64,000 nucleotides of DNA from an uncultured Candidatus Rokubacteria bacterium (GTDB lineage Bacteria; Methylomirabilota; Methylomirabilia; Rokubacteriales; CSP1-6): assembly GCA_963747235.1 (NCBI GenBank), contig CAVVEU010000014.1:160001-224000 (forward strand), read 5' to 3'. The notes beneath the pieces are model-generated. The model saw only the letters and a list, made by a program, of their open reading frames with translations. It made no database searches and was not told the DNA's origin. This document shows positions 59,646-63,325 of the stretch, piece after piece. A program made the position numbers and the translations under genes. Numbering within the stretch: the stretch's first letter is position 1; each line of letters begins with the position of its first letter.

Positions 59646-60630
59646 CTACTCGACCTTGCCGATCTGCTTCACCACCTCCGCGAGCCGGGCCGCGTCCTTG
59701 GCCCACCACGCGTTGAACTCGTCGGCGTCCATGTAGGCGATCGGGGTCTCGAGCTTGGCGTGCGAGGTGACCACCTCCGGCTCCTTCACCGCCTGACGGG
59801 CCGCGTCGCGCAGGATCTTGATGATGTGCGGCGGCGTGCCCTTCGGCGCCACCAGGCCCGCCCACGCGGTGTACTCGACGTCATAGCCCTGGGCCTTGAA
59901 CGAGGGGACGTCCGGGTAGGCCGCGACCGGCGCCGTCCCGCTGTGGGCGAGCAGCCGCAGCTTGCCGGCCTTCACGTGCTGGGCGGCCAGGCTCACCGGC
60001 GTCATCACGAGCTGGGCGTGGCCGCCCAGCATGGCGTTCATCATCGGCCCCCCACCCGTGGTCGGCAGGTGGCGCATCTTGATGCCGGCCGCCTTGATGA
60101 ACATCTCCATCGGAATGTGCGCCGCCCCGTAGAGGCCGGAGGAGGTGAAGACGATCTCGCCGGGCCGCTTCCTGGCGTCGTCCACCAGGTCCTTGAGCGT
60201 CTTCCACGGCGCGTCGGCCCGGACCACCAACATGGACGGATCGGCGTTGATCGCGGGCGATGCCGGTGAGCTGATCGAGCGTGTAGTTCTGCGGACGCCC
60301 GAAGAGCTTGTCGACCTCGGGCAGGACCGAGACGCTGACGAGGGCCATCAGCAGCGTGTAGCCGTCCGGCTTGCTGGTGGCGACGACCTGGTTGCCCACC
60401 GCTCCCGCCGCGCCGGGCTTGTTGATGATCGGGACCGGCTGCTTGAGGAGGCGCTCGAGCGCCGCCGCCACCGGCCGCGCCGTGTTGTCGGCCAGGCCAC
60501 CGGGCGGAAACGCCACCACGATGGAGACCGGCCGCGTGGGATAGGGCTCCTGGGCCCACGCGGAGCTCGCCGCGATCGCGGTCAGCAGGACGAACAGGCC
60601 CAGCCCGGAGAGCGCTCGCCTCATGCTCAT
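59646..60630 (-). CDS. tctC: Tripartite tricarboxylate transporter substrate-binding protein (Bug/TctC); frameshift near 60255
   Basis: YPTRPVSIVVAFPPGG, NKPGAAG, KPDGYTLL, GKLRLLA, APKGTP. Confidence 0.92.
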
Positions 60631-60749
60631 CTCCTTTGATGAAGAGCCGATGGGGTGCGGTCGCAGCCAGGGCCGAAGCCTAGCAGCCGGTCCCCGAGCA
60701 GGTCAAGGCGCGCTCATTGTAGACTGGCGCGCCACGGAGGCAGACCACC

Positions 60750-62399
60750 ATGGCGACGAACGGCAAGCTCACGGTCCTGAACCCGGTCGGCTTCGCTCCG
60801 AAGATCACCCGCAAGGAGCTGGCCCCTCGGCTCGACACGCTGCACGGCAAGACCGTCTACCTGGTGGACTGCCGCTTCGACGACTCGGACGTCTTCCTCC
60901 AGCAGATGCAGGCCTGGTTCGCCGAGCACATGCCGGCGGTGAAGACGATCGTCAAGCCGATCTCGAGCGTGTATCTCAAGGACGATCCGGCGACCTGGCA
61001 GGAGATCAAGGCGCGCGGGCATGCCGCCATCGTCGGCGTCGGCCACTGAAGCACCTGCGCGCCGGCGGTCGCCGCGCACGCGATGACGATCGAGGCCGCC
61101 TACGGGGTCCCCACCGTCGCCCTGCACACCGACAAGTTCGACCGCGTGGTCGGCGCCGTCGCGGCCCAGAACGGCATGCCGGGCCTGCGCCAGGCGTTCG
61201 TGCCCCAGCCGGTCATGGGCAAGACGGCGGCGGAGCTCCGCGCCTACATCGACGGGCGTGATCCGATCAGCCGGCGGCCGGTCATGCAGGAAGTGATCGA
61301 GGGGCTGACCCGGCCCTTCGCCGACGACGAGCGCGGCGCGATCGACTTCGACCGGTCCACGCCGCGGCTCGTCGAGCCCGACACCGAGGAGGCCCTGCAC
61401 CGCCTCTTCCTCGACCGCGACTGGACGGACAAGCTGCCGATCGTGCTCCCCACCGAGGAGCGCGTGGCCGCGATGCTGGCCGCGACCCGGCGCCGGCCCG
61501 ACGAGGTGGTCGGGCGCATGCGGCCGACCCATTTCCGGGAAGCGTGGGAGTACACGGTCGAGAAGGTCGCGGTGAATGCGGTCATGGCCGGCGCCGAGCC
61601 CGCGTACTTTCCGGTGATCCTGGCCCTCGCCGCGACGGGGGTGAGCGCGCGTGGCAGCAGCTCGAGCTCGCTCGCCACCATGGCGGTCGTCAACGGCCCG
61701 GCGCGCCACGAGATCGGCATGAACGTGGGCACCGGCGCGCTCGGCCCCCACAACCACGCCAACGCGACCATCGGCCGCGCCTACGGGCTCCTCTCGCAGA
61801 ACCTCCAGGGCGGCTCGGTCCCCGGCCTCACCTACATGGGCTCCATGGGCAACAACTACGCGTACAACAGTGTGACGTTCGGCGAGAACGAGGAGCGGAG
61901 CCCCTGGGAGCCCTTCCACGTCCAGCACGGCTTCCGGCCGACCGACAGCGCGGTCAGCGTGTTCACCGGCTGCCGCTCGACGGCCTTCACCCTCGGGCTC
62001 CGGGAGCGGTACTGGCGCGAGCATGTCCGCAACATGTTCCGCGGCATGGACCCGCACACCCCGCCGACCCTCCTGCTGGATCCCATCACCGCGCGGCAGT
62101 TCGTGGACCGGGGCGGGTTCCTGAAAAAGGATGCGCTCATCGACTGGCTCTACGACAATGCGCGGATGCCGGCCGGCGAGTACTGGGACTACCAGCTCGT
62201 GCAGAACTACATCTATCCCCGCGCCACCTTCGGCGAGGAGCCGTGGGCGTCCAAGCTCAAGGCGGCGCCCGACGAGCTGATCCCGATGTTCCGGCGCGAG
62301 GACATCCACGTGGTGGTCGTCGGGGGCGAGACCAACGGCTACTGGCGCATCATGGGCTGCGCGTACCAGACCACGCTCTCCGTCGACGCGTGGCGCTAG
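60750..62399 (+). CDS. Selenoprotein, UGSC-like (UxxC) domain fused to a large uncharacterised domain; Sec codon TGA at 61047-61049
   Basis: ORFs 60750-61049 and 61083-62399 share a frame; reads AAIVGVGH-U-STCAPAVAAHAMTIE..GVPTV; hairpin follows the TGA. Confidence 0.85.
61056..61078 (+). promoter_or_regulatory. Candidate bacterial SECIS element
   Basis: TGCG-cgc-CGGC-GGTC-GCCG-CGCA; G-containing loop starts 17 nt after the TGA. Confidence 0.6.
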
Positions 62400-62410
62400 A
62401 GAAAGGACTC

Positions 62411-63325
62411 ATGAAGCTCAGCGTCGAGTTTCCGAGCGTGTCCTACCGGGAGGGCCCGGCCGCGGTGGCCGACCTCGCCCGCGCCATCGAGCGGATCGGC
62501 TACGACCACATCGACATCTTCGACCACGTGGTCATGGGCGTGCCGATCGAGGGCCGCCCCCGCGGCCCCTACAACGCGGCGATGCCGATCCTCGAGGCCC
62601 TGATGGCGCTCTCCTACATCGCGGCCGTCACCACCCGCGTCACCCTCGGCACCGAGGTGCTCGTGCTCCCGCAGCGCCACCCCACGCTGGTGGCCAAGCA
62701 GGTGAGCACGCTCGACACGCTCTCCGGCGGCCGCGTGCGGCTCGGGGTGGGCGTCGGCTGGCAGGAGTCGGAGTACGAGGCCCTCGGCGAGCCCTTCCGG
62801 ACGCGGGGCGCGCGCATGGACGAGGCCATCCGCCTCCTGCGCGCCTACTGGACCGACGCCGAGGTGAGCTTCGAGAGCGCGCACTACCCCATGGTGTCCA
62901 TGGCCATGGAGCCCAAGCCGCCGCAGGCCGGCCGCCTGCCGATCTGGATCGGCGGTCTCTCGGAGGCCGCGTTCCGGCGCGTGGGCCGGCTCGGCGACGG
63001 CTGGCTCGCCAGCCGGGTCACCGACGCGGCCGGCGCGCGCGAGGCCATCGAGGCCATCCATCGCCACGCGGAAGCGGCCGGGCGCGATCCCGGCGCCATC
63101 GGCCTGCAGAGTATGGTGGCGCCGCCGCCCCGCGACGCGGCGGGCAAGACGTTCTACGCCGACCACGACGCGGTGGTGGCCCGCGTCGCCGCGCTCAAGG
63201 CCATGGGCTTCGGCTGGGTCGCGCTCAACGCCACCGCGATCTTCCAGGCCGGTGCGCGCTCCGTGGCCGCGATGACCGAGCAGCTCGCCACGCTGCACGA
63301 CCGCCTCCGCGCCGAAGTCGGCTGA
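62411..63325 (+). CDS. LLM-class oxidoreductase (putative F420/FMN-dependent)
   Basis: IGYDHIDIFDHVV, LPQRHPTLVAKQ, SGGRVRLGVGVGW, PIWIGG; RBS AAAGGA. Confidence 0.92.
   Translation: MKLSVEFPSVSYREGPAAVADLARAIERIGYDHIDIFDHVVMGVPIEGRPRGPYNAAMPILEALMALSYIAAVTTRVTLGTEVLVLPQRHPTLVAKQVSTLDTLSGGRVRLGVGVGWQESEYEALGEPFRTRGARMDEAIRLLRAYWTDAEVSFESAHYPMVSMAMEPKPPQAGRLPIWIGGLSEAAFRRVGRLGDGWLASRVTDAAGAREAIEAIHRHAEAAGRDPGAIGLQSMVAPPPRDAAGKTFYADHDAVVARVAALKAMGFGWVALNATAIFQAGARSVAAMTEQLATLHDRLRAEVG

Follow-up and report, generated by a model that had tools for sequence, protein, structure and literature searches.

An in-frame TGA in a 549-codon reading frame

On the forward strand of a 64,000-nucleotide stretch of DNA from an uncultured Candidatus Rokubacteria bacterium (NCBI GenBank assembly GCA_963747235.1, contig CAVVEU010000014.1, positions 160,001 to 224,000; hereafter the window, in whose numbering all positions are given), an open reading frame (ORF) of 99 amino acids ends with a TGA codon, and the same frame continues into an ORF of 438 amino acids. 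The question raised by this arrangement is whether the TGA terminates translation or is decoded, so that the two ORFs specify one protein. The comparison of homologous sequences indicates that the region 60750-62399 is almost certainly a single selenoprotein gene, in which UGA is decoded as selenocysteine (Sec). The explanation taken as a whole is considered highly probable. The gene comprises the following elements:

60750..62399, + strand, complete coding sequence of the predicted 549-residue selenoprotein (ATG 60750, putative Sec-TGA 61047-61049, stop codon TAG 62397-62399)
60736..60740, + strand, Shine-Dalgarno sequence GGAGG, 9 nt 5' of ATG 60750, as read from the sequence
60771..61244, + strand, UGSC domain (residues 8-165; Pfam PF24696), which straddles the TGA
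61044..61088, + strand, block of 15 codons (99-113), base-identical in 13 orthologues
61047..61058, + strand, predicted redox motif U-S-T-C (TGA AGC ACC TGC), with Sec100 and Cys103
61056..61082, + strand, putative selenocysteine insertion sequence (SECIS) hairpin: lower stem, bulge, 4-bp upper stem CGGC/GCCG and loop GGUC (61067-61070)
61083..61085, + strand, internal Met112 codon, taken by gene callers as the start of the 438-amino acid protein
61317..62396, + strand, C-terminal partner domain of ~360 residues, without a Pfam family or solved relative

The shorter ORF (60750-61049) terminates with HAAIVGVGH-TGA, the TGA occupying positions 61047-61049. Past this codon the frame reads S-T-C-A-P-A-V-A-A-H-A-M112 and stays open until the TAG at 62397-62399; it encodes 549 residues when the TGA is translated as U100, and the 438-amino acid ORF beginning at ATG 61083 is its tail. 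A first-pass annotation of the window had joined the two ORFs across the TGA and placed a U-S-T-C motif at residue 100, both of which can be read directly from the sequence. It had also reported no Shine-Dalgarno sequence in front of the second ORF, and the upstream region bears this out: no purine-rich Shine-Dalgarno sequence was found upstream of ATG 61083 (sequence gccgcgcacgcg). In the genome of origin, a protein search returned a 100% match to the 549-residue frame, containing one TGA.

Conservation of the TGA and its pairing with cysteine

The Pfam profile of the UGSC family (PF24696) matched the joined frame across the TGA at 89.1 bits, the cut-off being 25 (85.1 bits for the same gene in the family search of the genome). 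Orthologues (E ≤1e-100) were present in 13 of 41 genomes, comprising the genome of origin and 40 relatives, and each of the 13 contained exactly one TGA. A survey of 251 genomes of the phylum identified 86 genomes with a match at E ≤1e-80, all within one bacterial family, in which 85 of the 158 other genomes carry a match. Of the 91 stretches listed, 82 span residue 100 and every one of these contains exactly one TGA; eight are fragments starting past residue 100, none with a TGA. One further fragment (G141:C7:7895-8614, residues 309-549 only) has a single TGA located away from the Sec column, which may be a frameshift overlap. The match of the UGSC profile across the TGA, together with the TGA in all spanning matches, places the two-ORF pattern far beyond chance.

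Homologues with cysteine at the position of the TGA were looked for, a check that the first-pass annotation had named, and they proved to be the rule outside the window's family. In all 11 full-length homologues aligned with the window protein, the TGA column is occupied by Cys, within the invariant sequence G-V-G-H-C-S-T-C-A-P, and Met112 (ATG 61083) is conserved among homologues. When GTDB species genomes were searched with a Cys-type homologue, 80 loci were returned, 79 of which include the motif; the codon at the Sec column is TGC in 69, TGT in three (Cys codons in 72/79) and TGA in seven. The TGA loci come from Binatia, Syntrophobacter, Chloroflexota/Chloroflexi (two), Dehalococcoidia and Methylomirabilota/Methylomirabilia (two). 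The motif U-S-T-C is found in the window protein and in all 40 Sec forms of its subfamily.

The same division is visible in public protein records. A search of 5.8 billion proteins yielded 5945 relatives among 8000 candidates scored, and the best 120 were inspected. Among these, homologues with 84-97% identity are recorded as proteins of 407-449 amino acids, mostly 438, and they cover 74-80% of the query, i.e. they begin downstream of the TGA; hits covering 99-100% of the query are 546-558 amino acids long and 68-73% identical. The public records of the Methylomirabilota orthologues are cut to 438 amino acids and lack selenocysteine.

The SECIS hairpin

The sequence following the TGA is conserved at the level of single bases. 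In 13 orthologues, 404 of the 549 codons vary at the nucleotide level, and the longest invariant run is the block of 15 codons that contains the TGA (the next longest has four). Among 32 orthologues, only four of the 38 positions past the TGA show variation (+3, +9, +30 and +33, in one or two sequences each), compared with 21 of 45 columns upstream and 24 of 49 further downstream. Synonymous divergence (dS) across codons 101-113 is zero in seven of eight pairs, with dS of 0.15-1.4 in the flanks.

An RNAalifold consensus of 11 distinct Sec-type sequences contains 10 base pairs with a one-base bulge (-14.47 kcal/mol); the energy of the window's own hairpin is -15.6 kcal/mol. The first-pass annotation had placed the start of a GC hairpin with a GGUC loop 17 nt past the TGA. 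This distance is correct for the loop, which begins after 17 nt, and not for the stem, which begins at +7/+8. The two C>U changes at +9 and +30 both fall in the lower stem and preserve G-U pairing. A Sec-type paralogue (G-V-G-L-U-S-T-C-S-P) at the end of a contig of a Xanthobacteraceae metagenome-assembled genome (MAG; from L145:3534-3575 onward, - strand) has another stem, CCCCAC/GUGGGG, and retains both the GGUC loop and its distance from the UGA, two pairs being changed on both sides. This contig also holds a Cys-type fused gene, on the strand opposite to the Sec-type paralogue.

The hairpin also distinguishes Sec from Cys forms. Its mean energy (+5 to +34) is -15.7 kcal/mol (standard deviation 0.9) in 40 Sec forms and -6.4 kcal/mol (standard deviation 2.8) in 71 Cys forms, the latter being the 72 Cys-type loci minus the Cys gene of L145, and the GGTC loop is present in 40/40 Sec versus 18/71 Cys forms. 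Like the SECIS of Escherichia coli formate dehydrogenase, the window element is a hairpin inside the coding region, directly 3' to the UGA. In the E. coli element a small loop at the apex contains G and U, in the distance range of about 17-21 nt past the UGA used in the comparison with the window; unlike it, the window element has a different stem sequence and no matching Rfam family. A permissive Rfam scan of positions 60000-63000 gave four hits, all with E >3, far below the gathering scores and none of them relevant.

According to the available text of a recent report, the model for bacterial SECIS elements comprises a loop of 3-9 nt, an upper stem of 4 bp or more, a G in the first two loop bases, a spacing of 16-37 nt from the UGA and a minimum free energy of -7.5 kcal/mol or lower (PMC13188914). 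The first-pass annotation had envisaged a bacterial SECIS predictor; the comparison was made against this published consensus, with which the window element agrees throughout (4-nt loop GGUC, 4-bp stem CGGC/GCCG, 17 nt, -15.6 kcal/mol).

Selenocysteine machinery, selection and independent DNA

All four genes of the selenocysteine machinery, whose presence had been named as a further check, were found, and selA, selB, selC and selD all exceed the curated cut-offs. The genes for selA, selB and tRNA-Sec score 578, 365 and 69 bits, respectively, the tRNA being called by ARAGORN with anticodon tca; they are found together ~115 kb upstream of the window, on the same contig. The selD match (228 bits) is on another contig (C27:46033-46945) and spreads over two frames, probably because of an indel in the assembly. 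A second selD-like region (C8:303114-303868) is broken over three frames. There are thus signs that the split selD regions reflect indels in the assembly or broken copies.

When the window gene is compared with eight orthologues, the ratio of nonsynonymous to synonymous substitution rates (dN/dS) falls within 0.15-0.43 across codons 1-98, 0.10-0.29 across codons 114-189 and 0.11-0.23 across the C-terminal domain. Since these values are well below 1 on either side of the TGA, both parts appear to be maintained as protein.

In contigs from four public sequencing runs, the differences listed include none at 61047-61049. A soil metagenome provides a 312-nt contig (60816-61127) that runs across the TGA and differs only at 61094; a 342-nt contig from a metatranscriptome library (60741-61082) crosses the TGA as well. 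Coverage in these runs refers to assembled contigs, from which transcript ends and expression level are not readable and in which uncovered parts carry no meaning. The summed contig depth peaks in the bin containing the SECIS (61042-61098) in the three runs other than X1 (133, 42 and 227), which fits many related strains sharing the invariant stretch.

Alternative readings of the TGA

Several points weigh against the selenoprotein interpretation. The support for selenium insertion at U100 is comparative only. In folding energy, the 64 nt past the TGA do not surpass shuffled sequences (z +1.4; 187 of 200 shuffles were at least as good); because folding energy alone is unremarkable in GC-rich DNA, the case for the SECIS rests on comparative evidence. 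The hairpin is invariant in the orthologues, and its covariation comes from one paralogue and from wobble changes only.

Among the alternatives, the one that fares best, although it is very unlikely, is that translation ends at the UGA and that the locus produces a separate 99-amino acid peptide and a 438-amino acid protein from ATG 61083. Gene callers do give 438-amino acid proteins for the listed homologues with 84-97% identity, and the ATG is conserved as Met112. Termination would, however, sever the UGSC fold at residue 100 of a match extending from residue 8 to 165, the internal ATG has no Shine-Dalgarno sequence ahead of it, and the Cys forms exist as single proteins of 546-558 amino acids. 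Nor would plain termination explain the base-level invariance and the hairpin past the TGA, and the genome encodes the complete Sec machinery.

Slightly less probable still is the formal possibility that the UGA is recoded with another residue, such as Cys or Trp, by a near-cognate or suppressor tRNA, the hairpin merely slowing the ribosome. The homologous column is occupied by Cys, the usual counterpart of Sec, and the hairpin agrees with the SelB-type SECIS model; selA, selB, selC and selD are all present. Moreover, the gene itself ends in TAG, and each of the nine UGSC genes of this genome has one TGA, in the same column.

An origin of the TGA in a sequencing error, or in a nonsense mutation that has recently made the gene a pseudogene, has a negligible probability: the neighbouring tctC is frameshifted in the window and intact (343 amino acids) in two orthologous loci, and selD is matched in two frames, but the TGA recurs in 82/82 spanning matches from 85 other genomes and at seven loci from other phyla, is intact in an independent metagenome contig, and is flanked on either side by sequence with dN/dS well below 1. 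The base-call error considered in the first-pass annotation is thereby excluded. That annotation had also contrasted the in-frame stop with indels elsewhere in the window, and rightly so. The gene tctC (receptor of a tripartite tricarboxylate transporter; 59646-60630, - strand) consists of two overlapping ORFs in different frames and is a single 343-amino acid frame in the orthologous loci L040 and L046; its split in the window is either an assembly indel or a real frameshift. With such indels in the assembly, the clean, conserved in-frame TGA stands out. The genes tctB and tctA come after tctC on the same strand.

A divergent member of the UGSC family

The interpretation of the gene as a selenoprotein gene thus agrees with the first-pass annotation, being supported by the UGSC match across the TGA, the conserved TGA, the Cys column, the SECIS and the Sec machinery. 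The gene is, however, less of a novelty than that annotation had taken it to be. As given in the available text of the reports by Zhang and Gladyshev, the UGSC-containing protein has been in print as a selenoprotein family since 2007-2008 (PMC1976440, PMC2398784). The Global Ocean Sampling survey described 255 Sec and 21 Cys UGSC sequences with a UxxC motif, and UGSC is one of the selenoprotein families best represented in metagenomes from the environment (PMC2398784, as far as its available text goes). The same text suggests a thioredoxin fold for UGSC and reports a 'UGSC/Unknown_1 fusion' (PMC2398784, Fig. S1A). The function of UGSC is given as unknown in the available portions of PMC1976440, PMC2398784, PMC9312934 and PMC13188914, and no functional study of the family was found in the literature searched.

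With the UGSC family (PF24696, NF041046) the window protein shares the column of its UxxC motif, the pairing of Sec with Cys, a SECIS immediately past the UGA and the sequence G-V-P-T-V after the motif. Unlike the family, in which the motif is D-U-G-S-C, it has H-U-S-T-C. The U-S-T-C variant had been described in the first-pass annotation as belonging to an enzyme fused to a large domain; the fusion stands, and the protein belongs to the already named family PF24696, its large domain being a recurrent, unnamed partner of UGSC. What is already known is therefore the UGSC selenoprotein family, and what is new is a divergent, fused U-S-T-C member, mis-annotated as a protein of 438 amino acids.

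A UGSC profile search of the genome identified nine genes (loci L151-L159, on contigs C8, C13, C19, C24, C33 and C40); all nine have one in-frame TGA in the same column. The partner domain accompanies each of them, fused in three cases and within about 500 nt in six, and two more copies of it occur in the genome without an adjoining UGSC match. Unlike most UGSC copies here (5-6 of the eight others are separate genes), the UGSC domain of the window protein is fused N-terminally to its partner. Seven of the other UGSC genes were examined and all read x-TGA-G-S/T-C, the motif being U-G-S-C except for U-G-T-C in one. In six of these seven there is a hairpin of 8-9 bp at about +20, with G-U in a 3-nt loop; unlike these paralogues, the window gene carries its GGUC as a tetraloop, and the GC stem beneath it is short and bulged. 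A Methylomirabilota MAG has been predicted to carry 63 selenoprotein genes, according to the available text of PMC13188914, and the nine UGSC genes found here fit a large selenoproteome of this kind.

The two domains of the protein

Structure prediction of the joined protein, a further check named in the first-pass annotation, succeeded for its N-terminal domain and gave a poor model of the C-terminal part. The N-terminal domain is modelled with a per-residue confidence (pLDDT) of 84-96 over most of residues 21-190, as a three-layer alpha/beta sandwich in which Sec100 is predicted to lie between a strand (92-98) and a helix (103-118).

When modelled alone on 44 diverse homologues, the partner domain gave a pLDDT of 92.9 and a predicted TM-score (pTM) of 0.92. 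Its family comprises 4164 representatives at 50% clustering (E ≤0.001), and the partner domain accompanies UGSC proteins throughout bacteria. Residues G281, G316, E379 and W386 are invariant in the family, and E271, S304, S307, N338, R343 and D546 nearly so. Sequence comparison of the partner domain with the PDB gave no hits at E ≤10, and the sole PDB match of the full-alignment profile, to Ni-CO dehydrogenase (E 1.2), is not significant. A Foldseek comparison with the PDB likewise returned no hits at E ≤0.001; the best candidates, class I fumarate hydratase with E 9e-3 and a TM of 0.22 and barbiturase/cyanuric acid hydrolase with E about 0.05, were rejected as too weak. A search of the ESM Atlas yielded unnamed clusters only, plus one cluster with UGSC in 41% of its members.

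Nine longer proteins with the partner domain (583-741 amino acids) matched UGSC or nothing in Pfam, and no fusion to thioredoxin or thioredoxin reductase (TrxR) was found among these nine. Five proteins of 709-741 amino acids (P0174, P0204, P0208, P0220 and P0260) match the partner domain twice along their length, belong to no Pfam family and may be tandem duplications of this domain.

Gene neighbourhood of homologues and a possible mechanism

Outside the window's lineage, the commonest neighbour of the gene is a flavoprotein of ~310 residues (Pyr_redox_2) of the low-molecular-weight TrxR type. In tblastn searches, 49 of 80 loci had a TrxR-like gene no more than 3 kb away; in 46 of these 49 it shares the strand, and mostly it starts right past the stop codon. 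A CxxC motif is kept in 48 of the 49 (CASC in 41, CAAC in six and CATC in one). The genome of the window has only two relatives of this flavoprotein, one of which (C27:43222-43815) lies about 2-3 kb from selD.

Genes of malonate metabolism were also found beside the gene: malonyl-CoA decarboxylase in 20 of the 80 loci and a malonyl-CoA-synthetase-like AMP-binding enzyme in 22, many of these loci being from related Neorhizobium and others from Chelativorans, Aminobacter, Sphingobium, Microbacterium and Agromyces. A cassette of malonyl-CoA decarboxylase, the malonyl-CoA-synthetase-like enzyme, the Cys-type fused gene, the TrxR-like flavoprotein and a GntR/FCD regulator is present in L073, L093, L112, L115, L071 and other loci; its bearers are Rhizobiaceae, Phyllobacteriaceae, Sphingomonadaceae and Microbacteriaceae.

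On the comparative evidence, the working mode of the gene would be as follows. The ribosome would decode UGA 61047-61049 as selenocysteine, the SECIS hairpin at 61056-61082 recruiting SelB that carries Sec-tRNA(Sec). The predicted product consists of an N-terminal UGSC domain bearing the redox pair Sec100-x-x-Cys103, fused to the partner domain of ~360 residues. The selenol/thiol pair may alternate between the reduced state and a selenenylsulfide form, and may act as reductant or nucleophile for the C-terminal domain, in which case the fusion would be a reductase. Since a TrxR-like CxxC flavoprotein is the commonest neighbour elsewhere, electrons could pass from NAD(P)H to the CxxC of the flavoprotein, from there to the U/C-x-x-C of the UGSC domain, and on to the chemistry of the partner domain. 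The flavoprotein, as the putative donor, is encoded beside the gene in other lineages, and not in that of the window.

The reductase mechanism for the UGSC/partner fusion is a tentative proposal, the chances of which come close to even. A number of results stand against it. The neighbour survey found no conserved neighbour for orthologues in other genera of the family, their neighbours being variable. The TrxR-like gene is absent from all 32 orthologous loci of the family (1.5-kb flanks) and from the window's contig. The NCBIfam model NF041046 (UGSC equivalog) matched residues 33-167 with 57.5 bits, the cut-off being 125; by its profile scores the window protein appears to be a member of a divergent UGSC subfamily, not an NF041046 equivalog. 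The alignment of the partner family shows no conserved Cys, and the comparison of the partner domain with the PDB by Foldseek revealed no recognisable catalytic fold. The AlphaFold2 model of the whole protein, built with 12 close homologues, is poor in the C-terminal part (mean pLDDT 53.6).

A mechanistic parallel may be drawn with GrdB and PrdB, the selenoproteins B of glycine/sarcosine/betaine reductase and of D-proline reductase. Like these proteins, the window protein would be a UxxC selenoprotein working with a larger substrate-binding partner, the comparison being confined to the way they work. GrdB/PrdB draw electrons from the thioredoxin system, beside which the TrxR-like gene can be set as the commonest neighbour of the gene in other lineages. 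A UxxC motif is listed for PrdB (PMC2398784, Table 2, in its available text). Unlike GrdB/PrdB, no pyruvoyl-forming subunit was identified here. No sequence kinship with GrdB/PrdB was found: the window protein did not match the Pfam profile PF07355 (GRDB) at E up to 1; across the genome this profile matched only C29:143316 and C8:471097, neither of which is a UGSC locus.

A more far-reaching reading, unlikely to hold in all its parts together, is that (i) UGSC and its partner constitute an undescribed class of selenol/thiol-dependent reductase, similar to GrdB/PrdB in mechanism and with unrelated folds, (ii) a dedicated flavoprotein of the low-molecular-weight TrxR type drives this reductase, (iii) the substrate of the Cys-type homologues found in Rhizobiaceae, Phyllobacteriaceae, Sphingomonadaceae and Microbacteriaceae is a compound channelled into the malonate pathway, and (iv) the Ser-rich loop with S304/S307 could be the catalytic or cofactor-forming site. 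The link to the malonate pathway is suggested because the gene lies between or beside the malonyl-CoA decarboxylase and malonyl-CoA-synthetase-like genes.

With its Sec/Cys pairing, invariant SECIS and compensatory change, the locus provides a clean, documented example of a UGSC gene. The fusion physically ties the selenoprotein to an unnamed partner domain, which is modelled confidently although no relative with a solved structure was found. Interest centres on the chemistry of the UGSC/partner enzyme, and a route to its substrate is offered by the Cys-type homologues of culturable Neorhizobium, Aminobacter and Microbacterium, with their adjacent TrxR-like and malonate genes.

The gene downstream

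The gene following the predicted selenoprotein gene in the window is:

62411..63325, + strand, luciferase-like (LLM) oxidoreductase gene, 11 nt past the stop codon (Pfam PF00296, E 6.5e-52)

This gene adjoins the orthologue in 10 of 32 loci, nine of them >90% identical, and is a genus-specific neighbour.

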